DNA from: a virus
Taxonomy: Duplodnaviria > Heunggongvirae > Uroviricota > Caudoviricetes
IMG/VR virus record: IMGVR_UViG_648276657_000007
Coordinates: 1 to 26,895 of that record
DNA length: 26,895 nucleotides
Direction: 5' to 3' (one strand)
In this document: piece by piece, positions 1-20,793 of the stretch
Layout: the number at the start of each line of letters is the position of its first letter
How positions within the stretch are numbered: position 1 is the first letter of the stretch
The notes under the pieces: model-generated
Seen by the model: the letters and a program-made list of their open reading frames with translations, nothing else
Told to the model about the DNA's origin: nothing
Databases searched by the model: none
Made by a program: the position numbers and the translations under genes

Positions 1-1902
1 TTATTCAACTTCATTTCTTGGCAGCACATCTAGCTGTTTCATTAAGTCTCGAAATGATGGATACAAATCATCAATTGTCTGAATGAAGTCAAAGTATTTA
101 AATAATAACTTTGATGCTACTTCTTCATCTACATTTGATTCTCGCAGGAAGAGAGAAACACCTATTTTATTTTCCAGATCTGTAACAAACTTTTGGATAA
201 GAGGTTTTGACATTACTCGCTCAGGTTTGAATACTCCATCTTCGCACCATGATCTAACGACATCCACAAAATTAAGATTAGCAAATTCTGGTCGGTTTTT
301 CTTTTGACTATTGAATCTAGCCTCTATTTCTTTGTTTAGTGAGGAGGTTAAATCATTGACAGAATCCTTTAATTCATCAATTAAGGTATCAATGTGTGTT
401 GAAAATTCGTCTTCAGCAATAAATGGAGCCAAGGAATACAAATACTTTTTAAAAATACTCAGATCCGAAAATAACACTGACTCAATACAATATCCCACAT
501 GACTATATGGAGTGAACCGTTTCTTAGTAATATTATCCTTAAGATAATGATCAACAGTGTTTGTAGAAAAATCCCGATCAAAAATAACATACCACGATTT
601 GCCATTTAGAATCGAATTTAAAGTTCTCTTATTATACTCAACCTTTTGGAGAATATTATCTTTTCCTCGTAACGGAAAGAAAACTACATTTTTCAAACAA
701 CCAATTGGGTTAGTAATTTCTTTGATCTTTTGGTTAAGTTTCTTTAGATATTTTTCATCGTCCTCACCTTCAACAAATGCGATTAGTTTTGCATTATTAA
801 GTCTCTCGAGAGATAAAATTACCCCCCCCAATGAGTTTTTTATAATATCGAAACTATTTGGGTTGATTGCTTCTAGGTGACCACTTAATTTAGCGTCTTC
901 GTTTAGGAAGAATACTTCACCTTCTCCTGCGCTGGTCACAAATTGATCGTTATGACTGATAATAAAAAACTGATTGTGATCTATTTTTTTTAAATGGGCG
1001 AGAAGATTATGTTGTAGCTTTGTGTGGATGTGTGAGTCAGGTTCGTCAACAAGCAGTAACTTGAGAGGAGCATCAATAAATTCAACTGTAGATAGTATTT
1101 CCACAATTTGAAGAAAACCACTTCCTTGAAGGTGAAGATCATAATATTTTGAACTATTGATTGAAACATCAAGTTTAATGAATTCATCTTTATTTTTTCT
1201 TGCATCCGAAGGAATATTGAACTTGACATCTTTCTCAAGTATTTCAGATATGCTTAATTCCAAATCTGATATTGACTTTCTTTTAGAGATAATTTTGTTT
1301 CTAAGAACCTCGTGTGAATAACCTTTTTGGATTTTTCTCTTAATCTGAGCCTCATTATAGTACGGCTCAAATTGATGAACTCCTGCTACTGGTCTCGTCT
1401 GGTAAATAAAGATAGCTTCATCCAAAAATGCCCCTCCTTTACAAAATTCTTCCGCAAAATTAGTAAACTGATTTTCATCTATTGGTTGAACGCGGAAAAA
1501 AGCATTTTCGATTGATGTTGGGCATGTAACTTTGAATCCAAGCTCCCAGCTCTTATCATTCTCCTCTTCATTTTTTAATGTCAGAGTTATTTCAGAGCAT
1601 TTTCCTAGATTAGGATCTCTTGGGTCGTGAAAAAGATCCTCATCACTTGTGATTCGCAAAAAATCCAGCTCTTGATAATTAACATATCTGTTTGTTGACT
1701 TCTTAACTTTATAAAACCCTTTCCTTGAAGCAAGGATATATGTTTTATAACATTTCTCCCATAAATGAATAGCTTCAAAAACAGTTGACTTCCCAGCACT
1801 ATTTTCCCCAATGATTATATTAAAATCAGGATTGGGAACGATAGAAATATTTTTAAAACTTTTGAAGTTTTTTAATGATATTTTACTTATTCTTAGCTTC
1901 AT
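1..1902 (-). CDS. OLD-family ATPase-TOPRIM nuclease; either standalone P2-Old-like or a single-chain PARIS-like (AriA-AriB fusion) defence protein
   Basis: 633-aa ORF, ATG at 1902..1900, stop at 3..1. Walker A GENSAGKST (aa 32-40), Walker B LLLVDEPDSHIH, H-loop IISHND. C-terminal half has TOPRIM-like acidic motifs IAFVEGEDDE and YVIFDRDF. Sampled lines are about 30-35% GC. Confidence 0.7.
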   Translation of the reverse strand: MKLRISKISLKNFKSFKNISIVPNPDFNIIIGENSAGKSTVFEAIHLWEKCYKTYILASRKGFYKVKKSTNRYVNYQELDFLRITSDEDLFHDPRDPNLGKCSEITLTLKNEEENDKSWELGFKVTCPTSIENAFFRVQPIDENQFTNFAEEFCKGGAFLDEAIFIYQTRPVAGVHQFEPYYNEAQIKRKIQKGYSHEVLRNKIISKRKSISDLELSISEILEKDVKFNIPSDARKNKDEFIKLDVSINSSKYYDLHLQGSGFLQIVEILSTVEFIDAPLKLLLVDEPDSHIHTKLQHNLLAHLKKIDHNQFFIISHNDQFVTSAGEGEVFFLNEDAKLSGHLEAINPNSFDIIKNSLGGVILSLERLNNAKLIAFVEGEDDEKYLKKLNQKIKEITNPIGCLKNVVFFPLRGKDNILQKVEYNKRTLNSILNGKSWYVIFDRDFSTNTVDHYLKDNITKKRFTPYSHVGYCIESVLFSDLSIFKKYLYSLAPFIAEDEFSTHIDTLIDELKDSVNDLTSSLNKEIEARFNSQKKNRPEFANLNFVDVVRSWCEDGVFKPERVMSKPLIQKFVTDLENKIGVSLFLRESNVDEEVASKLLFKYFDFIQTIDDLYPSFRDLMKQLDVLPRNEVE

Positions 1903-2433
1903 CCAGACTCCCTAAACCAAATCGGATGTTTATTCATTTATATCAACAAACAGTCCTTTCTTTTGCCATAATAGCTATTAGCAACCAGACGCTTGCCTAG
2001 GTATAATCAGCTTTTTGGGGCTCGTCCATGAACAGAACCCCGATTATTCTGAATAAATACATTATTTATACATTTCTTGCAACATTTCAAATGCCTATCT
2101 CAATAAAATGTAATGAAATTTTTAGTGTTTCGGTCGAATGTATTAGTAACATCCCCCATTGACTTACATATGCTGAGGTTTGCAGCCTCTGATTGCGGCA
2201 CAAAGTTGACGGGTAGTATTGAGCAAAAAACGAACACTTTCCTTTTATTGAGGTTAGCTAAAACTGCATCGAGCTCTGAGGCCTGCCGTCAAACCTCATT
2301 TCATTGTTTCTACAAATCTTTATAGTTGATTATCAAATCTTCCATTGCAAAGAAAATTATTGGATAATCGTCTTTATTGATATTACTGTTTGATTTTTTG
2401 TAGTTAATAACTAAAATCAGGAAGAAATGAACG

Positions 2434-2871
2434 ATGACAAAAGAGAAATTATATAAATTACTATATGATATTTGGAAAAAATCCAGTCGTGCTTATTTTT
2501 CTGGCATAGGCGTTATTATATGTAATAACCCTGATAGCCTTCCCATCACAAGTCTTCGGAATATAGACCCCATACAGAATGATTCCACATTAGAATTATT
2601 ATCAAGAATTTCCAATAAAAATAGCGAATACCATGATGGCTTTCACATCTTAGATGAAGCAGGAAATGTTACTTATACCGCACAATATTTCTCACCACCA
2701 ATCATAGAGAACATCAGTTTTGACAGTTCAAGACTCGTCGGTGGACGTTTTGTTGCTGCCCTTTATGGCTCTTGCATTGACGAGATTAAACTTACTGGGA
2801 TTGTAGGCGAAAGAGGTCGTCTTTCTATATTTGAGGCTGGTAAAGAAGTTTATTACGAGGAGTTGCAATGA
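2434..2871 (+). CDS. Minimal DAC-fold (DisA_N / diadenylate-cyclase-like) protein with non-canonical catalytic motifs; candidate signal generator or sensor
   Basis: 145 aa; SD AGGAAG 8 nt upstream of the ATG. By-eye alignment to CdaA/DisA DAC motifs: GIGVII ~ GALIVI, STLELLSRI ~ SSELLINI, HDGFHIL ~ HDGAVIM, AQYFSPP ~ AACYLPLS, LVGGRFVAALYGS ~ LGTRHRAAVGIS, IVGERGRLSIF ~ IVSEETGGVSV. Stop overlaps the next ATG (ATGA at 2868-2871). Confidence 0.55.
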   Translation: MTKEKLYKLLYDIWKKSSRAYFSGIGVIICNNPDSLPITSLRNIDPIQNDSTLELLSRISNKNSEYHDGFHILDEAGNVTYTAQYFSPPIIENISFDSSRLVGGRFVAALYGSCIDEIKLTGIVGERGRLSIFEAGKEVYYEELQ

Positions 2872-3461
2872 TAAACCTTCTCCCAATATGGAAAATAATC
2901 TCAAGAATCTCCGTTATCTATGCGACTGTCTGCGGTCTGATTTTATTGGGCATATATGATGAAAACACAACTTTCATGACAGTCCTATCAGTTGCATCTG
3001 GAGGTTTGTTTATTCTTAATACTATTGTGATATCAATTTTTTTCTTTGGGTGGCGAAAGTTATGGCAATGGTTCCCTAAACTAAATAACCTACTCTTCCC
3101 TGATTTGAACGGAACCTGGGATATGGTTATTCATTGGGAATGGGAAGATAAAAAAGGCACATCCCACGCACAAGCAACTATAAAGCAGGATTTTCTTAAA
3201 ATTGGAATGGATGTCGAAGCTGACGACTCCGATTCTCAGACATTGGTGGCTAAGCCTAAAAAGGATACCGAAACGGGGCGACCAGAACTTTACTACGTTT
3301 TTTTAACAACCCCCAAGCATAAGGCAGGTTTTGGTCCACAAGATCCTTACATGGGCACAGCTATTCTCAAGCTAAATCTTAATGATAAAGACGTGTTAAA
3401 TGGGAACTACTTTACAAGCCGTAAAACAGTAGGTCATTACGAGCTGACACGCATTAACTAA
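2868..3461 (+). CDS. Two-transmembrane-helix membrane protein with about 135-aa C-terminal soluble domain; candidate membrane-disrupting effector (Cap15 / S-2TMbeta-like architecture)
   Basis: 197 aa; hydrophobic helices at roughly aa 12-30 (ISRISVIYATVCGLILLGIY) and 37-60 (MTVLSVASGGLFILNTIVISIFFFGW), followed by WRKLWQW and a hydrophilic domain; translationally coupled to the DAC-like gene. Confidence 0.6.
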   Translation: MINLLPIWKIISRISVIYATVCGLILLGIYDENTTFMTVLSVASGGLFILNTIVISIFFFGWRKLWQWFPKLNNLLFPDLNGTWDMVIHWEWEDKKGTSHAQATIKQDFLKIGMDVEADDSDSQTLVAKPKKDTETGRPELYYVFLTTPKHKAGFGPQDPYMGTAILKLNLNDKDVLNGNYFTSRKTVGHYELTRIN

Positions 3462-3776
3462 TTGCTAGTCAGCGGTTGACGGCCCCTTACTGGGGGCCAA
3501 TATCCTGAGAAACCTATCGTAAATAATGCTCAAAATCTAAACACGAGTTTTATATAAACTGATTGATTAGTCATTGAAAATCTTTCCCCTATAGACTTGA
3601 AGAAAGGTAAATGTGCGAGACCAGAAGATTCTGAGTCCGGCACAACTATTCTGTTTTTCTTTTTCACACCACATTTCGACTAAAGGTTAATGCTCCTAGC
3701 AACGTCCCTTTTTGGCACAGAGCGGACTGTCAGATTAGGCTTTACTCTGTGCTATAGGTATGTAAGCTCATACAAC

Positions 3777-4304
3777 TTATTGCGGCATTTCCGGCCATTC
3801 AGGATTTGCAGGATCCACACGACTGACCAGAACGCTGTAGCGTTCCCATGCTTCCAGTCGGCTGCGCTCCTCCTCTGTTGCCATATTCAGCCTGACAGCG
3901 CGCTCCAGCAGCAAAATCACGGATTCAGCTTCGGAAAGTAAAGTTGCCTTTTGTGATTCTGCCAGTTGATGCTGTTCGTCTGCCGTATAAATCCGCTTAA
4001 TCACGGCACCATCCTTAAACATCCATTTACCTGAGTCATCAGCACGTCGGTTGGCGGTAATATCAGGAACCTCGACAACGCTAAATCCTTCAGGGTTAAG
4101 CGTTGAAGCATCTCTGGTGATGCCGACAATTATATTATTCTCGTCGTAAACAATCTTTATCGTGTCTTCCTGAAAATTACTTACTTCCTCATACCAGTTT
4201 TTTCCGTCTTCAGACCATAACCAGATAACATCAAAATTTTTTGTCAGTTGATATTGAGCAACAGTTTTGGGATTACCCGCAGTAATATTTTTTAAATGCT
4301 GCAT
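3777..4304 (-). CDS. G: Tail fibre assembly chaperone (P2 gpG-like)
   Basis: 175 aa, same length as P2 G as I recall it; lies immediately downstream of the tail fibre gene. Confidence 0.85.
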
Positions 4305-4307
4305 AAA

Positions 4308-6236
4308 TTACACCTGTGCGACGTTATACCATGTGCCATTGATGTATTTTTGTATTGGTCTGAATACTGCGGGGTCATCACCATCGACTTCACCGACAAT
4401 ACCAAGCCCTGTAATTACATGGCCTGATTTTTCATACATCACACCTTTTTGCATAGTCTGAACAACACGTGTGCCCAGGCGAATATCTCGTACATAGCGA
4501 GAATCCGATTCAGCTTTGGTATATGCACCAACATCTCCCGCAGAGGGTTTGCGGGTTGTGGTGTAAAACTCTGACCAGTCAGCCTCAAATCCATAACCAT
4601 CACGTGCTGAACGATAAAAAATACCGCCGTTCTTATAATTCACACGGAACTGTACGGCAGGGCAACTCCCCGCATTCATATTGAAGTGGAGGATTAATGT
4701 CGATGCACCGCTGATATCTGCATCATAAACACCGCTATTCCAGTTCCAGCCAACAGCTTTATCATTTGCAACCCTGCTTCCTGTTTGCCCTAAAGCAAAT
4801 GCAGGCTGCTGGTTTTTCGTGTTGTAGTCTCGTCGCCAGCCGGGGGCATAAGCATCACCATGATTAATATAAGTGAATTGAGCGTTAGTGGTGCCGCCTC
4901 CGGTAGAAGTGCTTGGTGTTGTTACACGGATGGTCATGGCACCTTTATTACCCATAACCTCAATAACGCAACCTGCAAGATGAATAGTTCCACAGCCAGT
5001 ATCGGTAATAATTTTATTATTGCCGTATGACCATGAACATTTGCACATCCAGTACGGATGATTAAATGCACCACGGGAATCCAGCCATTCAATAAACTGA
5101 GCGGTTGTCCAGTTTCCGGCTTCAGTGCTCAAAGCGCCGCTATAAGCACGACAGGCACCGATATTTTTCGTGAAGGTATCCTTTCCCGGAATATCCGCAC
5201 CGTTCTGATCTTTCTGAAGACGTTTTTCAGCATTGTCATAGGCAGACTTCACTGCTTTTGGTGTTGCGGCCAGCGTTTCAGAATCGCTGTTGATGGCACT
5301 ATTGAGCTGAACAAGACCTTTCCGCGCCGTGGTGGCGTCCTGTGCAGTGTATTTCCCGTTAGCAAGGTCATATGCTGCTTTTACCGCCTTTGGCGTTGCT
5401 GCAAGCGTTTCAGAATCGCTGTTGGTGGCGCTACTGAGCTGGATAAGACCTTTTCGCGCTGTGGTGGCGTCCTGTGCAGTGTATTTCCCGTTAGCAAGGT
5501 CATATGCTGCTTTTACCGCTTTCGGCGTTGCGGCCAGTGTTTCAGACGTGCTGTTGGTGGCACTACTGAGCTGGACAAGGCCTTTTCGCGCTATGGTGGC
5601 GTCCTGTGCGGTATATTTCCCGTTAGCAAGGTCATACGCGGCCTTTACCGCTTTCGGCGTTGCGGCCAGTGTTTCAGACGTGCTGTTGGTCGCACTGCTT
5701 AACTGAGTAAAACCTTTGGCGGTCAGCGAGGCGTCCGGGTGACGTCGTGACTGTTCATGTTCTGCAATTTTGTCATCAACGTAATCCTGCGTTGCCATCA
5801 CCGTTGTGGTGTCAATGGTCAGCTCCACTGAGGCTACACTGCTGACTATGATGACCATGCGGCAGGTCTGCGAACGCCCTGAGCCTTCGGCAAGGGCTGG
5901 CTTATAACTTTCGGCCATGTTCGCCACGGCAATTAGCGTTCCCGCATCATCGTACAGGCCAAGTTCACGCATCCAGAAACCGCCCACCTCCGGCGGAATA
6001 ACCAGCTCTGCGATAATATAATTACTGTTTCGTTTGTCCTGGCTGATTTTGTTCAGCGTATGTCGCCAGACTTCGTGGATAAGTCCGGTCTGTCCGGCAT
6101 CCGGGACAGGCAATTTACCACCGCCATCCCCGACGGCCATCGTGGTAATGTTGACCTTCCGCCCTCCCGGTGCGGTTGCCGCTGCCAGCTTTGCTGCACC
6201 GGCAGTGGTGATAACGGTTCTGAATTTTGTGCTCAT
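4308..6236 (-). CDS. H: Tail fibre protein (P2 gpH-like) with internal tandem fibre repeats and a C-terminal receptor-binding region
   Basis: 642 aa; conserved N-terminus MSTKFRTVITTAGAAKL...; 44-aa repeats QLSSATNSTSETLAATPKAVKAAYDLANGKYTAQDAT in about 3.5 copies. Confidence 0.9.
   Translation of the reverse strand: MSTKFRTVITTAGAAKLAAATAPGGRKVNITTMAVGDGGGKLPVPDAGQTGLIHEVWRHTLNKISQDKRNSNYIIAELVIPPEVGGFWMRELGLYDDAGTLIAVANMAESYKPALAEGSGRSQTCRMVIIVSSVASVELTIDTTTVMATQDYVDDKIAEHEQSRRHPDASLTAKGFTQLSSATNSTSETLAATPKAVKAAYDLANGKYTAQDATIARKGLVQLSSATNSTSETLAATPKAVKAAYDLANGKYTAQDATTARKGLIQLSSATNSDSETLAATPKAVKAAYDLANGKYTAQDATTARKGLVQLNSAINSDSETLAATPKAVKSAYDNAEKRLQKDQNGADIPGKDTFTKNIGACRAYSGALSTEAGNWTTAQFIEWLDSRGAFNHPYWMCKCSWSYGNNKIITDTGCGTIHLAGCVIEVMGNKGAMTIRVTTPSTSTGGGTTNAQFTYINHGDAYAPGWRRDYNTKNQQPAFALGQTGSRVANDKAVGWNWNSGVYDADISGASTLILHFNMNAGSCPAVQFRVNYKNGGIFYRSARDGYGFEADWSEFYTTTRKPSAGDVGAYTKAESDSRYVRDIRLGTRVVQTMQKGVMYEKSGHVITGLGIVGEVDGDDPAVFRPIQKYINGTWYNVAQV
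5250..5740. repeat. In-frame tandem repeat of about 132 bp, roughly 3.5 copies, inside tail fibre gene H
   Basis: Unit start tgtgcagtgtatttcccgttagcaaggtcat recurs at 5341, 5473 and 5605 (period 132), with a degenerate partial copy before 5341. Confidence 0.85.
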
Positions 6237-6246
6237 TATTCCTCAC

Positions 6247-6777
6247 TTATCCGGGGTAAACCGTAATTACATCGCCGTCGTAAGCCACACCACCGGTGAA
6301 CAGGTAGCCGGGAATGTCCCGGGTAATGTTCAGGCCAATAAGGTGACGGCTTGCAGGTTTGGCATCAGCAATCAGCCGTTCCATTTCCTGATACATTGCC
6401 TCTGTGATGCCACTTTCCAGTACACCAATATCAAGCCGGAAGGTGCCGGGCGGGTCACTGTTTTCCCACCACTCCGTCACGTTGATGAGATAGCCGAGCG
6501 GCTCCACCACACGCCGGATTGCACCTATAGTGCCTTTATGACAGTGGATGAAATACGCATCGCGGATAACGGCGCGTTTTGTCGCTTCCGGCCACTTCTC
6601 ATCCCACCTGTCGACCGAAAACGCCCACGCCAGCCACGGCAGCAGATTTGCCGGGCAGGTGTCCGGGTTCCACAGCTCACGAATACTGACCGGCGTTTTT
6701 TCAATTTCCGCACAGGCTTTTGCAGCGGCGACCTCAAGCGGTGATGAGCCGGTCGGCAGCAGGCGCGAATCACTCAT
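6247..6777 (-). CDS. I: Baseplate assembly protein (P2 gpI-like)
   Basis: 176 aa; position and length match P2 I. Confidence 0.85.
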   Translation of the reverse strand: MSDSRLLPTGSSPLEVAAAKACAEIEKTPVSIRELWNPDTCPANLLPWLAWAFSVDRWDEKWPEATKRAVIRDAYFIHCHKGTIGAIRRVVEPLGYLINVTEWWENSDPPGTFRLDIGVLESGITEAMYQEMERLIADAKPASRHLIGLNITRDIPGYLFTGGVAYDGDVITVYPG

Positions 6778-7678
6778 CCGAGCCTCCGGTCACGACGCGG
6801 TATTCGGTACAGAAAGACGCCTGCGTACTGTTGAGCACGATGTCGGCCAGCGGTGCAGCCAGTTCGACACGCTGCACGCCTTCCACATGCAAAGCGGCAT
6901 AAATGGCAGATAGTCGGATGTCGCGCCCCAGCCGGTGCTGTGCCGTGATATACGCTTCCAGTTTTTTCACGGCGGCAGCGCGAATGGGTTCGCTTTCGGG
7001 ACCAGGGTAAAGGTAAAGCGTGGCGTTTATCTGGTATTCAACGATGGCGGCAGACTGCACGGTCACGCGGTCGGCCACCGGCCTGACATCCTCGCCATTA
7101 AGGGCGTTACGTACCACAGCCAGCAGGTCTTCGGATGCCACACCGTTATTCTCACGTGACAGCACAGAGATGGTGACGCAGGCCGGAGACGGACTGGTGA
7201 CAGAGATATCCGCGACACGCCCGTCGGCACTGCGACCATGATACTGATAGGCACCCACCGACCCGGCGACGCTTAAGCCCTCAAACGCCTGCTGAATACG
7301 CAGACGATAATCGGTGTCAGACTCCATCACTGCCGGTGTCGGCGGGATGGTCGAATCATCTGCCGGGGTGATAATCAGGCGTGTGGTGTTGTAATTGGCA
7401 CCAATCACATCAAGGTCATTACCGGCGGCACAGGCCAGCATTACCGCCCGTGCGGCCTCATTCACACGCTGACGCCAGATAAGCTCACGATAAGCGTTTT
7501 CCTCCAGCAGTTTGACGATAGGCTCGGATTCCAGCATCAGGGTACGGGCGACCGCCTCCTGCTGGTCTTCCGGGTAAAGGGAAATCAGTGTCGCCTTGCG
7601 TTCAGCAAGAATGGTTTCAAAGTCCAGCTCCTCGACCACATCCGGTGCGGGTAGCTGGTTCAGGTCGATAATCGGCAT
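6770..7678 (-). CDS. J: Baseplate protein J (P2 gpJ-like)
   Basis: 302 aa; overlaps I by 8 nt; order W-J-I. Confidence 0.9.
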   Translation of the reverse strand: MPIIDLNQLPAPDVVEELDFETILAERKATLISLYPEDQQEAVARTLMLESEPIVKLLEENAYRELIWRQRVNEAARAVMLACAAGNDLDVIGANYNTTRLIITPADDSTIPPTPAVMESDTDYRLRIQQAFEGLSVAGSVGAYQYHGRSADGRVADISVTSPSPACVTISVLSRENNGVASEDLLAVVRNALNGEDVRPVADRVTVQSAAIVEYQINATLYLYPGPESEPIRAAAVKKLEAYITAQHRLGRDIRLSAIYAALHVEGVQRVELAAPLADIVLNSTQASFCTEYRVVTGGSDE

Positions 7679-7682
7679 GGTT

Positions 7683-8030
7683 TCAACTCACAGGGATGGT
7701 TAACGAAAGTGGCTGGCCGGTGTCGTTGTGCCGGCCGGTTAACGTGACCGTCATTCGCCCGTCAAAACTCCGCTCAGTGGTGACGGATGACAGGGTGACG
7801 CGGGGTTCCCATTTCAGCACCGCCATGTAACAGGCGACCTTAATCTGCAACTCAAGCGCCGGGGTCTGCGGCTGGTCAATCATTGACGCCAGCAACGAGC
7901 CGTAATCACGACGCATCACCCGTGAGCCGACCGGTGTGCGCAGGATATCGCCGATACTCTGGCTGATATGCTCAAGGTCAGTGACAGTCAGGCCATCACT
8001 GCGATTCATTCCGAGATAACGCGCAGTCAT
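7683..8030 (-). CDS. W: Baseplate wedge protein W (gpW/gp25 family)
   Basis: 115 aa; lies between V and J. Confidence 0.85.
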   Translation of the reverse strand: MTARYLGMNRSDGLTVTDLEHISQSIGDILRTPVGSRVMRRDYGSLLASMIDQPQTPALELQIKVACYMAVLKWEPRVTLSSVTTERSFDGRMTVTLTGRHNDTGQPLSLTIPVS

Positions 8031-8662
8031 AGAGGTCCCCCTGTTGTGCCGCCACTGTCGCCGGGGTGTTTATGGGTATGCAGTACCTTACCGTTTGATG
8101 AGAGTTCACCACCGGTATGTTCAATGTTGCCGTGCATCGTTCCGCCCTTCTGCACTTCCAGCGTGCCGGTAATCAGCCTGTTGGTGCAGACCACCTCCGG
8201 TGTGTCCAGGGTGACGCGGGTTGATGCTTTCACCATGACCACCGGCACCGTGGCAGTAACAGAATCAGAAGCCGTCACGCTGGCCGTTTTAATTCCGCTT
8301 ACCGTGAGTGCACTGGTTTCGGGTTCATACTCAATCACCGCCCCGTCAGGGAAACGGATATGCAGGGCATCCGCCGACGCAGACGGCGCGGGGTTATCGC
8401 CGGAATAAATCCCCGGCAGAACAAACGCCGTGTCAAGTTCACCGCCCACGGCCAGAATCAGCACCTGCTCCCCCACGGAAGGTGCCCACCATGTGCGCGA
8501 ACGCCCGGCACGACAGGTCAGCCACTGAAGCCAGTCGGTGCACATGCCGCCGGTCTGCACACGGCAGCGACCGGCTTTAAGGTTGGTTTCGACGACAAGG
8601 CCGGTGCGGATCATGTTGCGCAGTGCGCGCGCGAGTTCCTGGATATTTGCGAGAGTGTTCAT
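8027..8662 (-). CDS. V: Baseplate spike / central hub protein (P2 gpV-like)
   Basis: 211 aa; stop overlaps the W start (4-nt overlap); C-terminal HTHKHPGDSGGTTGGPL spike-tip-like motif. Confidence 0.9.
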   Translation of the reverse strand: MNTLANIQELARALRNMIRTGLVVETNLKAGRCRVQTGGMCTDWLQWLTCRAGRSRTWWAPSVGEQVLILAVGGELDTAFVLPGIYSGDNPAPSASADALHIRFPDGAVIEYEPETSALTVSGIKTASVTASDSVTATVPVVMVKASTRVTLDTPEVVCTNRLITGTLEVQKGGTMHGNIEHTGGELSSNGKVLHTHKHPGDSGGTTGGPL

Positions 8663-8728
8663 AACGGGAAGGATGCCGCCGGGTCATACCGGCGGCAATG
8701 TAACGATGAGGTGTCGGGAATGGCACAA

Positions 8729-9181
8729 CTAACGGTCGAGGTGAGCCAGGATAATCTCTTCAATCATCTGCACATCCTCACCGGTAAAGCCGAGCAGAGG
8801 ACGCGCCGGATAATCAATTTTCTTACCGTCTTTCCGGGTTTCTTCCGACAGGCCGAACTGATGCACGCTGGCGATTTTCGGTGACTTCCCGCCGTAAAAT
8901 TCCATTGATGCCTGTTCCGGGCTGGCGCGGATATGCAAAAAACGACTGGTGATAAGTTTCGCAAACATTTTTCGCTTAACACGACCGGTCTTTTTTCTGG
9001 CGCTCTGCTGCTGGCGTGGCGCGTAGGGTGTGCCGTCCGGGGCTTTCTGAGCCATCACCCGACGCTGCTGACTCTGCCGCAGACGTTTCGCCAGTTCGGC
9101 ACTCAGTCGCCGACGCCCTGACGGTGACAGCGATTCAATAAGTCCGGTCAGCCGGTCTTCAAAACGCTTAAACTCATTCAT
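8729..9181 (-). CDS. S: Tail completion / virion morphogenesis protein (P2 gpS-like)
   Basis: 150 aa; follows R with an 8-nt overlap. Confidence 0.85.
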   Translation of the reverse strand: MNEFKRFEDRLTGLIESLSPSGRRRLSAELAKRLRQSQQRRVMAQKAPDGTPYAPRQQQSARKKTGRVKRKMFAKLITSRFLHIRASPEQASMEFYGGKSPKIASVHQFGLSEETRKDGKKIDYPARPLLGFTGEDVQMIEEIILAHLDR

Positions 9182-9641
9182 CCCACTTGCTCACGAGTTC
9201 GCCATTGATATACAGCTCCATCGGTCGGGTAACCGGCTCCGGCGGCGGAGGTTCCGGGATATTCTTCACATGCAGCGCGCCGTCAACCTCACTGACCAGC
9301 GTGCGCTCGGTCAGCATCAGGCTGATGCTGATATCAAAGCTGCTGTCATTGTTGATGTCTGCATAAAACGTGAAGCCCTTTTTCTGGCCTTCGTCGGTGG
9401 TCATGATGTCGGGCTGATTTTCCCGCAGCCACGCCAGCACCGGCACAATGAGCAGGTCAAAATCACCGGTAAAGTCGGTCACAATCACATTGAGCGTGTA
9501 ACGCTTTTCGAATGACAGCGACGTCGCCAGTGTGGAGGCAATACTCCCGTTATCCACGAATATCCGCAGCATCTCTGGACTGGTTTTCAGCACCGTGACG
9601 GCATCAGTCAGCGCCCTGCGCAGGCTGTCGGGTTTGAGCAT
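9174..9641 (-). CDS. R: Tail completion protein (P2 gpR-like)
   Basis: 155 aa; position after the lysis cassette. Confidence 0.85.
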   Translation of the reverse strand: MLKPDSLRRALTDAVTVLKTSPEMLRIFVDNGSIASTLATSLSFEKRYTLNVIVTDFTGDFDLLIVPVLAWLRENQPDIMTTDEGQKKGFTFYADINNDSSFDISISLMLTERTLVSEVDGALHVKNIPEPPPPEPVTRPMELYINGELVSKWDE

Positions 9642-9894
9642 CGTTTTCGTCCTGACAGTGTTTAATCATTTTTACCTGGCTGGCACAGCGTGCCAGCGCG
9701 TTCTCAAGCTGCCGGATATCGGCACTTAAATCGCCGTTCGTCTCCGGGTCACTGCCCGGCATCGGGCAAAGACTCACTTTCGGGCAGGCGTTGTGGACAA
9801 TCACTGGCGTCAGTGCAGGCCGGGCGCTGGTGCAACCGGCGCACAGCATCAGGCAGGTCAGCACCGTACCAGCGGCGAAAATCCTCGTTTTCAT
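9604..9894 (-). CDS. lysC: Outer-membrane lipoprotein spanin (LysC, Rz1-like), nested out of frame in lysB
   Basis: Internal start MKTRIFAAGTVLTCLMLCAGC has a lipoprotein signal and lipobox (LCAGC); 96 aa; starts inside lysB and overlaps the R start. Confidence 0.7.
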   Translation of the reverse strand: MKTRIFAAGTVLTCLMLCAGCTSARPALTPVIVHNACPKVSLCPMPGSDPETNGDLSADIRQLENALARCASQVKMIKHCQDENDAQTRQPAQGAD

Positions 9895-10174
9895 TAAGTA
9901 ACCTCGTGATGGTTTTCTCGCGCTGTGCTTCACGCTTCGCAGCGTTCTCCAGCTCCTGACGCAGTGCCACCTGCGCCAGCTCGTTTTTGTCTGCCCTGGT
10001 GAGCGCAACATGAAGCTGATTTTTCAGCATGGTGATGGTCGTCTGCTGCCCACTGGCGACATTGTTTGCCCTGTCCAGCGAGGCGCGCAGGCTGGCGTTT
10101 TCATGCTTCGCCAGAAACAGCCCCGCCACCGCCAGTGATAACAACACAACCAGCACAATCATCAGCTTTGACAT
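9749..10174 (-). CDS. lysB: Inner-membrane spanin (LysB, Rz-like)
   Basis: 141 aa; N-terminal TM helix MSKLMIVLVVLLSLAVAGLFLA followed by a charged, coiled-coil-like region. Confidence 0.8.
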   Translation of the reverse strand: MSKLMIVLVVLLSLAVAGLFLAKHENASLRASLDRANNVASGQQTTITMLKNQLHVALTRADKNELAQVALRQELENAAKREAQREKTITRLLNENEDFRRWYGADLPDAVRRLHQRPACTDASDCPQRLPESESLPDAGQ

Positions 10175-10587
10175 GGTTCCCGCCCCTCAAAACGCTGACG
10201 GCAGGCCGTACGTATCAGCCGGAAGAACACCGACGCCACGAGGCAAATCAGCGCAGTAAAAATCCACCCGGCAGCAACCAGCGAGATAAACGTCGCCACC
10301 ATCACCACCAGAGCCGCTGCCCGCCTGCGCCACGGCACCGGCTGCAAAAACAGCGACGTGACAATCTTCACGGCCAGCGATTCCGGCGGCAGCTCCCGCC
10401 CGTAGCGTTCCAGCACATACTCAGTGGTATACACGCCGACACCACCGGCAACCACACAGATAACCGTCGCCAGAATCGCCCAGGCAGCGACAAAATTGAC
10501 GGCCACGCTCTGCGGGTAAATCAGGGACAGTGCCAGCATCAGCGCCAGCGACACGTTCAGCATCAGTGAAAGGGATAATTTCTTCAT
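10162..10587 (-). CDS. lysA: Lysis-timing membrane protein (LysA-like)
   Basis: 141 aa; multiple hydrophobic helices; lies between K and lysB. Confidence 0.8.
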   Translation of the reverse strand: MKKLSLSLMLNVSLALMLALSLIYPQSVAVNFVAAWAILATVICVVAGGVGVYTTEYVLERYGRELPPESLAVKIVTSLFLQPVPWRRRAAALVVMVATFISLVAAGWIFTALICLVASVFFRLIRTACRQRFEGREPCQS

Positions 10588-10601
10588 GGTGTTTACTCCG
10601 T

Positions 10602-11099
10602 TTAAGCCGGTACGCCGCCAGCGGTACGCCAGACGGTGACCAGTTTTTCCAGTGAATGCTCACGCTGACCGTAACCGGCACCCGGCAGGGACGCCCAGAT
10701 ATTGCGACAGCGTGAAATGGCGCGCTCAATGCGCCCTGCCCGGATGTCATCCAGCGCACCGCGTTCGCGGATCAACTGAATGGCGAGCCTGTCCTGTGAC
10801 AACGGACTGAAATCCGGCAGGGCAAGCTGTTTGCGGTAATGCGGCCAGAACAGGTAAAGCTGCTGATAGCGACCGGAGGCCGTGGATTTTTCACCGCGAC
10901 GGTTAAACACCTTCGCCGGTCGGCCATGTGCGAACGGGTGGTCACTGTAGTCGGTGAAAATTTCCGGCTTCCCGTCCAGTCCGGTGACTATCACGTCATA
11001 GCCACGGTTTTTCGTCAGCGGATGATTCGCCGTCCCTTCGGATACCGCCAGCATGTCGAGAAAGGCGGCGATATTCTGATGCGTGTTAATTACCGGCAT
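10602..11099 (-). CDS. K: Endolysin (P2 gpK-like lysozyme)
   Basis: 165 aa; LAVSEGT catalytic-Glu context; immediately follows the holin with ATGA overlap at 11099. Confidence 0.9.
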   Translation of the reverse strand: MPVINTHQNIAAFLDMLAVSEGTANHPLTKNRGYDVIVTGLDGKPEIFTDYSDHPFAHGRPAKVFNRRGEKSTASGRYQQLYLFWPHYRKQLALPDFSPLSQDRLAIQLIRERGALDDIRAGRIERAISRCRNIWASLPGAGYGQREHSLEKLVTVWRTAGGVPA

Positions 11100-11380
11100 T
11101 ACTGTTTCCCCCTGCCCTTAAAGCGACGCTGAATGGCAATCTCAATCACCTGATAACCGGCGATACCCAGCATGGAGCCGATGCCGCACACCGCAGGCAG
11201 TGACAGGTCAGGAAACTGCACCAGAACAACACCGGCAACCATCGAGACAAAACCACCGAGCAACATGCGTCCGATAAACAGACGCGGGGTGATGGGTTCA
11301 CCACCGGCAAGCACCTTGCCGACAACAATCAGCACCCCAATCATGAAAAGCGACAGGACGCTTTTTTCTTCTGCTGTCAT
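11099..11380 (-). CDS. Y: Holin (P2 gpY-like)
   Basis: 93 aa; hydrophobic helices and a charged C-terminus RRFKGRGKQ. Confidence 0.85.
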   Translation of the reverse strand: MTAEEKSVLSLFMIGVLIVVGKVLAGGEPITPRLFIGRMLLGGFVSMVAGVVLVQFPDLSLPAVCGIGSMLGIAGYQVIEIAIQRRFKGRGKQ

Positions 11381-11383
11381 GCG

Positions 11384-11587
11384 TTACTCCCACAGATTGA
11401 CAGTTTCAGCCACGGACGCGGTCTGAACGTCGGGCAGTTCGACGGCGGTGCCGTGTGGCAGCACCGCACCCAGTTCAGCCAGTCCCGGATTTGCGGCGAG
11501 CACGGCTTCGACCACGCCCTCAGTGCGCCCGTAATACCGGACACAAATGGCGTCGAGCGTGTCGCCCTGTAGCGCAAAGGTCTTCAT
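11384..11587 (-). CDS. X: Tail protein X (LysM-like, P2 gpX-like)
   Basis: Internal start MKTFALQGDTLDAICVRYYG... gives 67 aa; this ATG overlaps the L stop; the six-frame ORF is longer (90 aa). Confidence 0.75.
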   Translation of the reverse strand: MKTFALQGDTLDAICVRYYGRTEGVVEAVLAANPGLAELGAVLPHGTAVELPDVQTASVAETVNLWE

Positions 11588-12096
11588 CAGATTTGACTCA
11601 CGATGCAGCGCGGCTTGTCCTGGATACGCGCCACTGCCCAGCGCATATCCCGCCACAGCTCATCAATGGTGCTGTCAATGCTGTCGGCCTTCTTGTCGCC
11701 TTTCGCACTGGCATCCACACCGCGATAACGTTCATAAAGTGACGCTGTCGCCATCGCACACACGGCGCGCTCGTAGTAAAAAACTTTGATGCTTTCACCG
11801 TCGATGTCGTCCGCCGGGACGTCCGCCAGACGCGTAAAACCGGCGGCAATTTTCTGTTCGCGGTACTCGTACAGCTCCGCATTCGTCTCCGCCATGCCTG
11901 ACTTGATGGCCTCACGCAGACGGGCGGGGGCGACGGTCTGCTCAAGGCGCATACGTTCCCGGACGCGCTTCGGGTCGATATCGGGAAAAAAGAACGTGTT
12001 TTTAATCACCGGCTCGTCGCCTGCCGGTTGCGGGATGACCACCGTACCCTCACCGGACACGGGAGCCTCCTTTCGCGGAATAATCAGCGTCATCAT
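11587..12096 (-). CDS. L: Head completion / stabilisation protein (P2 gpL-like)
   Basis: Start chosen at MMTLIIPRKEA (169 aa), with SD GAGGT 4-5 nt upstream; the six-frame ORF extends 20 codons further. Confidence 0.8.
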   Translation of the reverse strand: MMTLIIPRKEAPVSGEGTVVIPQPAGDEPVIKNTFFFPDIDPKRVRERMRLEQTVAPARLREAIKSGMAETNAELYEYREQKIAAGFTRLADVPADDIDGESIKVFYYERAVCAMATASLYERYRGVDASAKGDKKADSIDSTIDELWRDMRWAVARIQDKPRCIVSQI

Positions 12097-12195
12097 GACT
12101 ACCTCTGAAAAGTCGGGCGGTGGACGCCGGTGCAGTGTCAGGTGATTCACCCTCACTGACCGGCGTGCCGCCCTGGCGCGGGGCGCATTCGGTTG

Positions 12196-12939
12196 TTAAC
12201 TGGCTTTCTTTTTCGGGCGTCCACGTTTTGCCGGTGTCGCACTCCGGGTCTTACGCGGGGCGCGGGTGGCCGCTTTTGGCTGCGGCTCCGGCTTCGGTTT
12301 CAGCTCCCGCTCCAGTCGTTCAATCTCTTTTTTGACGCCTGCCTGACAGTCGAGCTGTGTCGCACGTTGCAGGTGAGCCAGCGCACCGGCGGCATCACCA
12401 CCGTCACGCAGAAACAGACCGGTGATTTTGTGCAGCTTTGCGCGCACTTCATCAGGCATGTCTGCCGTGGCGGTCAGTTCAAGGGTTTCCGTCAGCAGGC
12501 GGGTATCCACAGATTCACCGGCAGCGTGGGCGCGCATGGCCGCGAGCGCGACCTCCTCGGTGAACATGTACGGCGGGGTGCGGCGGTGTTTACCCGGCAT
12601 GGTCAGACCGTACTTCAGGGCATAACGGGCAATCTCCAGCGCACCGGCAATATCTCCGGTATCCAGACGCCACAGCATGACCGTCATCAGAATGTCATCC
12701 TGTGCGCCTTTGCCCTGCTCCAGCACGCCGTTCACCCACGGCAACCAGAACGGCAGCAGTTCGCGTTTTTTCGCGGCCTTCAGCTCTTTTGAATAAATCG
12801 CTTTCAGTGTGCGCTGGTCTGCGGCCAGCTTGACCAGCATCTGCTCATAGACAGTTGCATGTCGCAGCGGGGCGGCTTCCCGCTGCGCGGTCATCGCTGC
12901 CGAGACCCGCATCATGTGGCGCTGTGCGGGACTCGTCAT
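12196..12939 (-). CDS. M: Terminase small (endonuclease) subunit (P2 gpM-like)
   Basis: 247 aa; basic C-terminal tail PRKTRSATPAKRGRPKKKAS; follows N. Confidence 0.9.
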   Translation of the reverse strand: MTSPAQRHMMRVSAAMTAQREAAPLRHATVYEQMLVKLAADQRTLKAIYSKELKAAKKRELLPFWLPWVNGVLEQGKGAQDDILMTVMLWRLDTGDIAGALEIARYALKYGLTMPGKHRRTPPYMFTEEVALAAMRAHAAGESVDTRLLTETLELTATADMPDEVRAKLHKITGLFLRDGGDAAGALAHLQRATQLDCQAGVKKEIERLERELKPKPEPQPKAATRAPRKTRSATPAKRGRPKKKAS

Positions 12940-12942
12940 CGG

Positions 12943-14016
12943 TTACGCTCCCGGCTCTGCGGTCGCCTTAGCCGGTGTGGAGAAGTCACCGACCTTGATT
13001 TTTTCCACCAGACAACCGGCGGCGTAGTCTTCCACCACGTAATCAATGTTCATTGACTCGTAGTTCTCCACGCGGTCGAGTTTCGGGTTTTCCTCAATCA
13101 CGCGGCGATGGCTGTCATCCATGTAGTAGATGGACAGGTTTTCCAGCTTCGTGATGAGCATCGCATCCGCCGGGAAGTACGGGACGCGTACCGCCGGCAG
13201 GTTACCGATGCGTTTCTGGCTGATGATGACGTCAGCGGCCAGCATTTCGCTGTTGTCCTGCTCCTTGTTGACGATGGGGAAATACTTGTCCGCCAGTAGC
13301 TGGCGACCCACAATCACCACAAGGTCAGGGTCTTCCTGATACCACGGTTCAATCAGGTTGTTGGTCGCATCCATCACCAGTGCATCAAGGCTGGCATAAT
13401 CACCGCCCTTGCCCACGCGGATAACCTCAGAGGTGGTGCGGCCTTCCTCGTCAGTGACCTTGCTCATCACGCGCGCCGGGGCTTCATTGCGGTATTTCTG
13501 CAGCCAGCCGACCGCCACATCCTGCAGCATCGGATTGCTGCTGCGGTCAGAGGTTTCGGCACGCTTCACGCCGTTAAAACCGGCCATGATGAAATCAAGG
13601 GACTGACGTTTGATAATGGCGTTACGGACACGGAGCTGGAAATCCTGATAACGCGCCCACAGGTCAAGCGTTTTGTAGCGGATATAAAAATCGAAGTTAA
13701 TCTGGTCGCATTCGTACTTGTTTGACGCCAGCTTCGAGAAGTCCTTCGGCTGACGCTCGGTGCCACCGGCAGTGTCGGTGGTGCTGGCGATGGAGCCGGT
13801 GACACCGATACCAATTTTTTCCCCTTTCATTTCGCTGACCGGCACAATGTTGATGCGGGTCAGAAAGTCAGAGGACTCCTGCATGGTGTTCATCAGGGTC
13901 TGGGTGACCGAAGGTTCAACGGTGAATTTTTTCGACACATCACCGGCGTCAATGCCGTTCAGTTCGGCAACACGGGACAGGTAGGCATTAAATTTAAAGC
14001 GGGTTTCCTGGCGCAT
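12943..14016 (-). CDS. N: Major capsid protein (P2 gpN-like)
   Basis: 357 aa; lies between scaffold O and M. Confidence 0.9.
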   Translation of the reverse strand: MRQETRFKFNAYLSRVAELNGIDAGDVSKKFTVEPSVTQTLMNTMQESSDFLTRINIVPVSEMKGEKIGIGVTGSIASTTDTAGGTERQPKDFSKLASNKYECDQINFDFYIRYKTLDLWARYQDFQLRVRNAIIKRQSLDFIMAGFNGVKRAETSDRSSNPMLQDVAVGWLQKYRNEAPARVMSKVTDEEGRTTSEVIRVGKGGDYASLDALVMDATNNLIEPWYQEDPDLVVIVGRQLLADKYFPIVNKEQDNSEMLAADVIISQKRIGNLPAVRVPYFPADAMLITKLENLSIYYMDDSHRRVIEENPKLDRVENYESMNIDYVVEDYAAGCLVEKIKVGDFSTPAKATAEPGA

Positions 14017-14074
14017 AGTTTTTCCTGAAATTAAGGGTTAATCGTGAAGGTTTTCCCGGACTGACTGACGCCGG

Positions 14075-14929
14075 TCAGCAGTTCGTCATCAGGGCGTCAC
14101 CGCCACCACCGGTGGCCTTGCTGCGGCGCTGCTGGGTCAGACTTTCGGTGTGGTCGAGACTGTTTTTCAGGCGGGTGAATGCCTGGCTGGTTTCATCCGC
14201 CCTGTCAGTCACCTCCTGCTTAAGTGCGGAAAAGGCGGTTTCCATCTCAGCGAGGCGCTGCTCAGTGGCGCTCAGTTTTTCCTGCACATGTTCAGCAACA
14301 GCGGTCACCGCTTCATGCACATCATTCAGACGGGCGTCATCGCTGGCCTGTTTGCGGCCAAAAATGGATTTCACCTTTTCGGTCAGGGCGGTGAACACGG
14401 TTTCAGGCAGGTCTTCAAATTCCAGCTCAACGGGCGTTGCCACTGAAATCAGGTTTTCAGGGCTTAATTTGAAGCGGTTCAGAGGGTTGTGTTTTGCCGT
14501 GCGGCAGAATTCCAGGTATTCCGTGCCGAGGCTTGCCGGGTCATCGGTGACGGCCAGCCCCACCAGATAACATTTGCCGGTGTTGGCAAAGTTCGGCTGA
14601 ATTTCCATTGAGGTGTAGACCTTCTGCGCGGCCTTGTTCATCGCGATAAGGTCATCGGTCGGGGTGATTTTCGCAAACAGCGCCCATTTGCCTTTCAGCG
14701 CCGAATCGTCATCAATCTTTTCGGCCTTCAGTTCGACCACATCGCCATAACGTTTAAAAATACCGTCAGGCAGGATGCCGCGCAGATGTTCCAGGTTAAT
14801 GCGGCAACCGTAGACACGCGGGTCAAAGGTTTCGGCCATTTCCTGAATATCCTGCGCACTGATGACACGCCCGTCACAGGTGTCACCCTCAACGCCGATA
14901 CGAAAGAATTTTGAGACTTTTTTTGCCAT
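14075..14929 (-). CDS. O: Capsid scaffolding protein (P2 gpO-like)
   Basis: Start chosen at MAKKVSKFFRIGVEG (284 aa); the six-frame ORF has a 22-codon upstream extension. Confidence 0.85.
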   Translation of the reverse strand: MAKKVSKFFRIGVEGDTCDGRVISAQDIQEMAETFDPRVYGCRINLEHLRGILPDGIFKRYGDVVELKAEKIDDDSALKGKWALFAKITPTDDLIAMNKAAQKVYTSMEIQPNFANTGKCYLVGLAVTDDPASLGTEYLEFCRTAKHNPLNRFKLSPENLISVATPVELEFEDLPETVFTALTEKVKSIFGRKQASDDARLNDVHEAVTAVAEHVQEKLSATEQRLAEMETAFSALKQEVTDRADETSQAFTRLKNSLDHTESLTQQRRSKATGGGGDALMTNC

Positions 14930-15102
14930 TGTCAGGAGTCCTGAATAGTGATTAGAGGAGTCACATGTCGGCATCAGTTTCCCGACGATGCGCATCCTCC
15001 GCCATCAGTCCCGGATGGCTTATCACTGACACAACAGCACCTTAGCGAATCGCGGGGCGCGACTCAGTAGCCTTGCCGTGTATTCATCACGGCGAGGTAT
15101 TC

Positions 15103-17909: not shown

Positions 17910-17915
17910 ACATCG

Positions 17916-17937
17916 CCGCCTGCGGGCGGCTTTTTTA
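17916..17937 (+). terminator. Rho-independent terminator of the P-Q operon
   Basis: GCCGCC-tgcg-GGCGGC stem-loop (6-bp GC stem, 4-nt loop) followed by TTTTTT, 7 nt after the Q stop. Confidence 0.75.
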
Positions 17938-18074
17938 CACCCCGTCATCCCCCTCACACGCTCACCACTGCACAAAACACCCCGCAGACACACCAACCCC
18001 CAACGGGCAGACTAAGCGCCGTCACGACGCGCTGAGACGCTGGAAAATAAAATCAGCACCACCGCCAGCGCGCA

Positions 18075-18093
18075 GTGCTTTCCCCGCCTCGCC
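18075..18093. other. cos: cos cohesive-end sequence (P2/186 type)
   Basis: GTGCTTTCCCCGCCTCGCC is the reverse complement of the 19-nt P2 cohesive end GGCGAGGCGGGGAAAGCAC as I recall it; it sits in the expected place next to Q. Confidence 0.65.
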
Positions 18094-18240
18094 CGCCCGC
18101 TTCATGCAGGGCTTTAAATGCAGTGCAGCAGTAATGGTCAGAATGCGCCAGCACTGATGTCAGATACCAGAACTGGCATTTAAAAATGAATGCAAATAAA
18201 TGCACCAAACTAATTACTTACTGACAAAAAATAAGTAAAA

Positions 18241-19125: not shown

Positions 19126-19162
19126 AAATCCCTCTCATTCCTGATTTTGTAGTTTATCAGTT

Positions 19163-19182
19163 TCTGGACATCCATGTCCAGA
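19163..19182. promoter_or_regulatory. Inverted repeat TCTGGACAT-cc-ATGTCCAGA between the ParB-like gene stop and the methyltransferase start; candidate operator or attenuator
   Basis: 9-bp perfect arms with a 2-bp spacer, about 40 bp upstream of the methyltransferase ATG (19125). Confidence 0.4.
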
Positions 19183-19194
19183 TGTAGACAAATC

Positions 19195-20739: not shown

Positions 20740-20760
20740 CAACATATCCTCTGTTGAATC

Positions 20761-20793
20761 TTTATGATAAAAATTAATTATTTTTATCATAAA
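20761..20793. promoter_or_regulatory. AT-rich palindrome TTTATGATAAAAAT-taatt-ATTTTTATCATAAA just upstream of the ParB-like gene; candidate operator
   Basis: 14-bp perfect inverted arms separated by 5 bp, 22-54 bp upstream of the preferred start codon. Confidence 0.45.

Follow-up and report, generated by a model that had tools for sequence, protein, structure and literature searches.

Two unrelated head-to-head cassettes at the G–FI hotspot of an Escherichia coli P2-like prophage are probable phage defence systems

Introduction

P2-like phages are known to carry defence genes at two hotspots. The better known, old/tin, is located between genes A and Q (PMC9122126), and a second lies between the tail-fibre assembly gene G and the sheath gene FI (Vassallo et al., 2022, PMC9519451; Egorov et al., 2024, bioRxiv 10.1101/2024.10.15.618418). 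This study concerns the G–FI (Z/fun) cargo found at the start of a 26,895 nt stretch of Caudoviricetes DNA, positions 1 to 26,895 of IMG/VR record IMGVR_UViG_648276657_000007, which is referred to throughout as the window. We conclude, with a probability of about 0.8, that window positions 1 to ~3700 together with ~110 nt to the left of the window are the G–FI cargo of a yegQ-adjacent E. coli P2-like prophage, and that this cargo comprises two unrelated defence cassettes in a head-to-head arrangement, with a separate upstream region for each. One cassette is a panS–panE gene pair and the other is a single gene for a fused ATPase–Toprim protein.

The closest described relative of the first cassette is a gene pair named Panoptoo or PanDA in two August 2026 bioRxiv preprints (PMC13640738, PMC13640721). 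According to these preprints, PanS constitutively produces 3′3′-cUA (a cyclic dinucleotide of UMP and AMP) or 3′3′-c-di-AMP, which represses PanE; when a phage sponge such as Acb4 removes the dinucleotide, PanE permeabilizes the membrane (PMC13640738, PMC13640721). The closest relative of the second cassette is probably PARIS. In two-part PARIS, the nuclease is released from an ATPase hexamer (PMC11464382), and single-polypeptide AriA–AriB fusions are also counted as PARIS (PMC9122126; PMC11464382).

Results

Position and composition of the cargo

The original prediction described an AT-rich island that stands out from the tail genes and holds three non-structural genes and two long gaps. Both parts of this description are borne out. 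The guanine plus cytosine (GC) content is 0.35 over positions 1–3700 and 0.571 over the backbone from I to Q (6247–18000), and the GC values of 500 nt windows from the two regions do not overlap. By part, GC is 0.328 for the ATPase gene, 0.350 for the first spacer, 0.363 for panS, 0.394 for panE and 0.41 for the second spacer, while GC at third codon positions is 0.27–0.39 in the island genes and 0.63–0.71 in J, N and P. The compositional step is gradual on the side of G and H, which adjoin the island and have intermediate values (0.445 and 0.504, respectively). The map of open reading frames (ORFs) contains three intact non-structural ORFs of 633, 145 and 197 aa (Table 1), with gaps at 1903–2433 and 3462–3776 before G begins, and these coordinates are identical to those predicted.

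This AT-rich composition fits horizontally acquired immunity genes generally. It may also fit silencing by H-NS.

In full prophage copies, the island lies between the Caudo_TAP gene G and FI, in agreement with its predicted placement in a P2 hotspot. The same slot in P2 (NC_001895) holds fun(Z), which is annotated as blocking T5 and lies between G and the pF promoter and FI, bordered by a putative terminator of the V operon and by the pF activator site. An index of the assembly collection records the exact 145 aa PanS protein in 172 blocks. Seven of the eight places listed are P2-like E. coli prophages adjoining yegQ, with the trio of genes between FI and the tail-fibre assembly gene, and the eighth is a decayed prophage that has retained the island. 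The decayed copy (locus L001, GCA_028028825.1, 6843–14371) reads ogr, ATPase gene, panS, panE, G, truncated H (317 aa), C repressor and integrase; its tail, head and replication genes are all gone, and the defence island is intact.

Comparison of the G-to-FI interval with that of six other elements (P2, L-413C, vB_EcoM-12474III and the prophages of strains S10, UPEC132 and O145 RM9872) reveals the predicted combination of a conserved backbone and a variable insert. All seven elements share ~200 nt upstream of FI and ~65–76 nt after the G stop codon. The cargos between these flanks are unrelated, measure 1.3–4.9 kb and have 35–45% GC. Six different cargos are present in the seven elements: fun(Z), one hypothetical gene, a SMEK-domain gene, two hypothetical genes, a DUF2254 gene with a BCCT transporter gene, and the present trio.

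The cargo described here is also uncommon. When positions 1–4400 were compared by megablast with 5,426 complete E. coli genomes and 50,697 phage records, no match to positions 1–3700 was found. Matches were obtained in 1,529 of the genomes and in 101 phage records, and they begin only at 3699–3716, on the G side, which indicates that the insert is rare and the backbone is common. Since the insert is absent from all of these genomes and records, the trio is not a feature that essentially all P2-like phages carry at this position.

The same comparisons correct the predicted extent of the island (1–3776) at both ends while upholding the island itself. The right end of the variable insert is at ~3700–3712, where backbone homology starts, and its left end lies ~110 nt to the left of the window (approximately −114 in window coordinates). 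This ~110 nt stretch, as seen in full prophage copies, is non-coding and contains no further gene.

The island genes resemble fun(Z) in occupying the G–FI slot, where fun(Z), a lysogenic-conversion gene, is low in GC, non-essential and active in blocking another phage. They differ in having no sequence similarity to fun(Z), and homology of the island genes to Fun(Z) was rejected for this reason.

Table 1. Features of the G–FI cargo, its right-hand boundary and the second island, in window coordinates.
Feature	Position	Strand	Description
ATPase–Toprim gene	1..1902	-	ABC ATPase (1 to ~340), probable AriB-like Toprim/DUF4435 domain and helical tail (~335-633)
ATPase upstream region (presumed promoter/5′ leader)	1903..2142	-	Travels with the ATPase gene by DNA homology
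Inter-cassette junction	2143..2187	.	~45 nt without homology to either cassette in other genomes
PanS–PanE upstream region	2188..2433	+	Begins with 16 nt repeat TCTGATTGCGGCACAA (2188-2203)
panS	2434..2871	+	145 aa minimal DAC-domain protein without other domain or transmembrane segment
panE	2868..3461	+	197 aa; hydrophobic helices ~10-29 and ~40-60; Cap15-type cyclic-dinucleotide receptor beta-barrel 77-195
PanS–PanE 3′ flank	3462..3700	.	Contains second repeat copy TCTGAGTCCGGCACAA (3630-3645)
Backbone edge	3701..3776	.	Conserved P2 sequence directly downstream of G, right edge of the hotspot; P2-like matches start at 3699-3716
G (tail-fibre assembly), right-hand anchor	3777..4304	-	Pfam Caudo_TAP 2.1e-33; DNA 94-98% identical to many P2-like G genes
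PD-lambda-5, two genes	18241-19125 and 19195-20808	both -	PD-Lambda-5_A 1.6e-167; D12 N6-adenine methyltransferase PD-Lambda-5_B 7.9e-122

The panS–panE pair

The assignment of panS rests on one specific match. The 145 aa protein has a sole strong sequence match in the PDB, the entry 37jy_A named ‘Panoptoo PanS synthase’, to which it is 41% identical over 138 aa. The E-value is 1.6e-30 with the single sequence and 3.6e-46 with a profile built from 31 members of the family. An AlphaFold 2 (AF2) model of PanS has a predicted local distance difference test score (pLDDT) of 93.7, and the top 50 Foldseek matches in the PDB are all diadenylate cyclase (DAC) domains (CdaA, DacM, DacA and DisA; TM-score 0.58–0.70, 18–26% identity). 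Moreover, PanS carries the family-invariant motifs YHDGFH, QYFSPP and GGR[FY]..AA..GS (GGRF in this protein). No match to PanS was found in PADLOC, NCBIfam or PHROG.

Several observations count against this assignment or limit what can be drawn from it. The match of PanS to Pfam DAC (E-value 3.6e-5) has a score below the gathering cut-off; the canonical RHR motif of DAC proteins is replaced by GRF; and with only 41% identity to the crystallized PanS, the product made by the present protein is not predictable from its sequence.

The PanS family is small and distinct, with 330 cluster representatives among 1.84 billion clustered proteins at an E-value of 0.001. PanS relatives on viral contigs number 2 in 2.9 million, and phage carriage of PanS therefore appears rare. 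A few family members (e.g. P0201, P0244, P0259, P0273, P0292, P0302 and P0325) are 260–440 aa long as compared to the usual ~145 aa, and are therefore probably fused to other domains.

The second gene of the pair overlaps panS by 4 nt. Its product, PanE, matches Pfam Cap15_CD_rec (8.4e-20) and the PADLOC ‘2TM effector’ (two-transmembrane effector) of CBASS, the systems for signalling against phages through cyclic oligonucleotides (3.1e-31), and its two hydrophobic helices were recognized by hydropathy. Of 31 loci with a PanS-like gene (29 from genomes and 2 from viruses), 27 have a PanE-like gene as its direct neighbour. One of the unpaired loci is cut by a contig end, and the remaining three are distant DAC-like genes in metabolic neighbourhoods. 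The pairing spans Gamma-, Beta- and Alphaproteobacteria, Bacteroidota and Acidobacteria. PanE is usually encoded downstream of PanS with a 4 nt overlap, and the order is reversed in Bacteroidota, where PanE is upstream.

On the basis of this homology, panS–panE is best described as a Panoptoo/PanDA system, and we adopt the mechanism proposed for that system by analogy. The likenesses are a minimal DAC synthase of ~145 aa with the same invariant motifs and a two-gene operon in which a two-transmembrane (2TM) plus beta-barrel effector is encoded immediately downstream of the synthase. The present copy differs in that identity to the crystallized lineage, whose closest genomic relative in our set is Ciceribacter, is 41% for PanS and ~39% for PanE, and in being carried at a P2 prophage hotspot. 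By term counts, neither ‘prophage’ nor ‘P2-like’ appears in the text of PMC13640738 or PMC13640721.

Two other nucleotide-based systems share parts of this arrangement. Panoptes (mCpol plus the 2TM-beta protein OptE) likewise uses a constitutive decoy nucleotide to keep an effector of the same 2TM-beta class off, but PanS has a DAC fold, as all of its top fold matches attest, and not that of a minimal Cas10 Palm polymerase. Cap15-containing type I CBASS shares the Cap15 cyclic-dinucleotide receptor domain and the two transmembrane helices of PanE. It differs in its use of a cGAS/DncV-like nucleotidyltransferase (CD-NTase), for which no PADLOC or Pfam match was found in the island, and in that signalling by panS–panE is presumed to be inhibitory rather than activating.

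The CBASS profile matches raise the alternative that PanS–PanE acts as an ordinary type I CBASS, wherein the cyclase is silent until infection and its product activates the Cap15-like effector. PanE matches 2TM effector profiles of CBASS, Cap15 is activated by its ligand in CBASS, and CBASS-DAC systems with an activating signal supplied by a DAC have been reported (PMC13069673). However, PanS is a bare 145 aa catalytic domain without a sensor or regulatory part, and homologous PanS proteins are described by two groups, in the preprints cited above, as constitutive synthases that repress PanE. CBASS-DAC is built differently, from three genes that include those for a CD-NTase and a patatin phospholipase, and both of these are missing here. 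We consider CBASS-like activation improbable. Identity with CBASS-DAC (Liu-DS2 / DS-2) was rejected because of the difference in architecture.

Boundaries and independence of the two cassettes

DNA homology to other genomes divides the island into two blocks, 1–2142 and 2188–3629. Solo copies of the ATPase gene on a Serratia chromosome (83% identity) and on a K. oxytoca integrative and conjugative element (ICE; 86%) are homologous to the window through position 2140/2142, so that the block comprises the gene and 240 nt upstream. In a V. cholerae copy embedded in a type I restriction–modification (R-M) operon, homology ends at 1921. On the other side, K. oxytoca and Cedecea cassettes share 92% DNA identity with the window beginning exactly at 2188, and Serratia shares 88% from 2234. 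An AGGAAG ribosome-binding site is located 9 nt ahead of the panS ATG. Towards the right, K. oxytoca and Serratia homology reaches 3624/3629 and resumes at 3626–3723, past a 110 nt segment that is present in those genomes and missing from the window.

Because ATPase homology ends at 2142 and PanS–PanE homology starts at 2188 or 2234, we interpret the first spacer as two back-to-back upstream regions separated by a junction of ~45 nt. By the same alignments, the second spacer consists of the 3′ flank of the PanS–PanE cassette and ~75 nt that belong to the P2 backbone. Small ORFs within the spacers (e.g. 2113–2325 and 3530–3667) were rejected as genes since they straddle the homology boundaries and are not conserved as units. 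No Rfam match was found in either gap in a search of positions 1–4400. Promoter- and terminator-like sites in the gaps (13 and 3) are no commoner than in shuffled sequence (16.1 and 2.8 expected). The site scan thus produced no convincing promoter or terminator for either cassette, which counts against the reading of the island adopted here, and we assign no regulatory element from it.

The two cassettes are independently mobile units joined head to head. The ATPase gene is missing from all 29 PanS loci of other genomes, and since PanS loci outside E. coli are without it, the cassettes are independent. In Serratia the PanS–PanE pair occurs alone, and the ATPase gene is found solo in Serratia and in the K. 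oxytoca ICE. A single three-component system would explain why the three genes are adjacent in every E. coli copy examined and are transcribed divergently from a shared 531 nt region. Against this stand the occurrence of the ATPase gene and PanS–PanE apart everywhere else sampled and the presence of two DNA homology blocks with a 45 nt junction between them, and we regard such a system as very improbable.

A 16 nt direct repeat (TCTGATTGCGGCACAA and TCTGAGTCCGGCACAA) lies exactly at both ends of the PanS–PanE DNA homology. The right copy, TCTGAGTCCGGCACAA, and the bases preceding it resemble the 3′ end of tRNA-Phe. In K. oxytoca (L012, 7195–7330) and Serratia (L041, 7190–7330), a longer piece of ~110 nt is present at the right repeat and ends in ...GGTTCGATTCTCGATTCCGGCACCA. 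ARAGORN and Rfam made no tRNA call at the cassette edge in the window, in K. oxytoca or in Serratia. The repeats may be attachment-site (att) remnants of an island that had integrated at tRNA-Phe.

The ATPase–Toprim protein

The 633 aa protein carries intact Walker A (GENSAGKS, 32–39) and Walker B (LLLVDE, 282–287) motifs, and its Pfam matches above cut-off are AAA_15 (44.1 bits versus 32.1), AAA_21 (41.4 versus 27), AAA_23 and SMC_N. The Toprim motifs are the glutamate of VEGEDD (377–382; E378) and DRD (442–444), and E378, D442 and D444 show no or almost no variation among 27 homologues. The whole protein matches the PADLOC AriAB profile at 2.8e-18. When residues 335–633 are searched alone, only AriB (1.7e-6) and AbiLii (5e-4) are matched in PADLOC. 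An AF2 model of this part (pLDDT 88.9) has only two significant fold matches in the PDB, which are AriB chain 8v46_D (E = 9.3e-4) and 8ux9_A (E = 4e-3).

Other observations point away from this assignment. The DUF4435 score of the protein is 26.9 bits, against a cut-off of 27. The AriB fold matches, which cover ~320 columns, have modest TM-scores of 0.39–0.42 and 14–16% identity, and a PDB sequence search with the C-terminal part gave no AriB match. In addition, the NCBI name for relatives is ‘ATP-dependent nuclease’, as for OLD-family enzymes.

This name calls for consideration of a different function, that of an OLD- or Gabija-type ATP-dependent DNA nuclease instead of a PARIS-type RNA cutter. 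An ABC ATPase followed by a Toprim domain is the layout of both GajA and the Old protein of P2. Profiles for GajA and PtuA match the protein in large number, and a weak collinear similarity to P2 Old includes the VEG motif. The GajA and PtuA matches, however, cover the ATPase part, whereas the C-terminal part alone retrieves only the two PADLOC profiles named above; its model aligns with AriB, and no OLD or GajA Toprim chain is significant. The protein resembles P2 Old only in its P-loop, and no GajB-like helicase gene adjoins the 633 aa gene in any context sampled. A DNA nuclease of this type is therefore unlikely. Orthology to P2 Old was rejected, given that the similarity is to the P-loop only. 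Menshen (NsnABC), in which NsnA (DUF262) and NsnC partners flank the NsnB ATPase (PMC12065111), was also rejected: the best PADLOC match, NsnB, covers the ATPase only, and neither partner gene is present.

The 633 aa protein is best filed as a divergent fused PARIS-like protein. It resembles PARIS in combining an AAA_15/AAA_21 ATPase with a probable AriB-like domain in which the Toprim glutamate and DxD motif are conserved, and in its carriage on a P2/P4-type element, which is typical of PARIS. It differs in being one polypeptide rather than separate AriA and AriB proteins, in its strong divergence, and in that its relatives are embedded in type I R-M operons. Since ATPase and nuclease are fused, release of the AriB type would be impossible, and activation would instead involve a conformational change or oligomerization.

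Homologues with 59–90% identity to the 633 aa protein occur in many Gammaproteobacteria as well as in some Betaproteobacteria. We sampled seven lineages. In four (V. cholerae, Aeromonas, Chitinibacter and V. parahaemolyticus), hsdS and hsdR flank the gene within a type I restriction operon whose last gene is YgjP-like. The embedded gene is ~10 nt from hsdS and sometimes overlaps hsdR. The gene is solo in the other three lineages, namely at this P2 hotspot, at a Serratia chromosomal site and in the K. oxytoca ICE. The five-gene order hsdM, hsdS, X, hsdR and YgjP-like metallopeptidase gene is conserved in Vibrio, Aeromonas and Chitinibacter (L044–L046, L057–L062), and these operons sit on integrase- or Tn7-linked islands.

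PrrC is known for its position inside a type I R-M operon, between hsdS and hsdR. The relatives of the 633 aa protein have the same placement as PrrC at the EcoprrI locus and, like it, combine a nucleoside triphosphatase with a nuclease that probably backs up restriction. The nuclease of the 633 aa protein is probably of the Toprim/DUF4435 type and not a PrrC anticodon nuclease domain, and the copy in the window is uncoupled from any R-M operon. By analogy, placement in R-M operons suggests that the family may form a second line behind restriction.

We tentatively extend this analogy. It is possible that these proteins are an uncharacterized single-chain family native to type I operons, where they would guard restriction against anti-restriction proteins, and that the enterobacterial lineage has become free-standing with its own 240 nt promoter region and is activated by a route unlike AriB release.

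Neighbouring genes and a second island

The G gene beside the cargo shares 94–98% identity with its counterparts in P2-like phages of E. coli and Yersinia. H varies in length among copies (642 aa here and 696 aa in copy L002) and has internal repeats of ~130 nt (5229–5696). Together with the low GC content of G and H (3777–6236), these features fit swapping of receptor-binding proteins beside the hotspot. Other P2-like prophages have an extra plus-strand gene between V and S (L009, 11224–12267; L011, 10784–11569), which constitutes another small cargo slot. This slot is empty in the window, where V and S are 66 nt apart.

A second AT-rich island (18050–21050, GC 0.36) lies between the portal gene Q and the replication gene A, which is the classic old/tin hotspot of P2. 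It holds the two PD-lambda-5 genes listed in Table 1. With a complete PD-lambda-5 system at Q–A, the prophage therefore carries three predicted defence systems.

Discussion

Composition, position, boundaries, domain and fold assignments, gene pairing and the independent mobility of the cassettes are directly supported by the comparisons presented here. The original prediction that the cargo would be defence or anti-defence material holds for its first half: all three genes are assigned to defence, in two separate systems, and none to anti-defence.

A cargo with no defensive role, such as one that affects membrane or osmotic physiology through c-di-AMP or serves as a virulence moron, was also considered. 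Canonical DACs regulate osmotic homeostasis, and some P2 hotspot cargo is non-defensive, as illustrated by the BCCT transporter gene at this site in the S10 prophage. Nevertheless, the homology of PanS is specifically to a defence synthase, its partner gene panE encodes a CBASS-type killer effector, and members of the ATPase family reside in R-M operons, on an ICE and at a prophage hotspot. Of the explanations weighed here, a non-defensive function is the least probable.

The biochemical steps of both cassettes are taken from the literature or inferred. For the panS–panE cassette, PanS would constitutively synthesize a 3′3′ cyclic dinucleotide, either c-di-AMP or cUMP-AMP. PanE, which is predicted to reside in the inner membrane by means of its two helices, would bind this dinucleotide through its Cap15-type barrel and thereby be held inactive. 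If the sponge or nuclease of an infecting phage were to remove cyclic dinucleotides to evade CBASS-type immunity, PanE would lose its ligand. Ligand-free PanE would then permeabilize the membrane, and the infection would be aborted.

By analogy with PARIS, for which anti-restriction proteins (Ocr) are the trigger and tRNA is the target, and with PrrC, the 633 aa protein would remain latent until a phage anti-restriction protein or a similar trigger engages the ATPase. The triggered Toprim domain would cut RNA, probably tRNA, and translation would stop.

The G–FI hotspot, PARIS including its fusions and a DAC-based decoy system are already known. Specific to this locus are the P2-borne PanS–PanE allele of E. 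coli, the neighbouring gene for a fused PARIS-like protein and the R-M operon habitat of the relatives of the latter. Nothing here overturns current understanding. The structure of the island does suggest how hotspot cargo is built, namely from ready-made cassettes, each of which brings regulatory flanks of its own, with short junctions between them.

If the proposed functions are correct, two distinct detectors of phage counter-defence lie next to each other in the prophage, in addition to the R-M-like PD-lambda-5 at its other hotspot. The recurrent placement of the ATPase–Toprim family in type I restriction operons provides a clue, open to testing, as to what is sensed by fused proteins of the PARIS-like kind. 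Furthermore, as a natural, prophage-borne instance in E. coli with its native flanks, the panS–panE cassette would be a convenient native model for decoy-nucleotide immunity.

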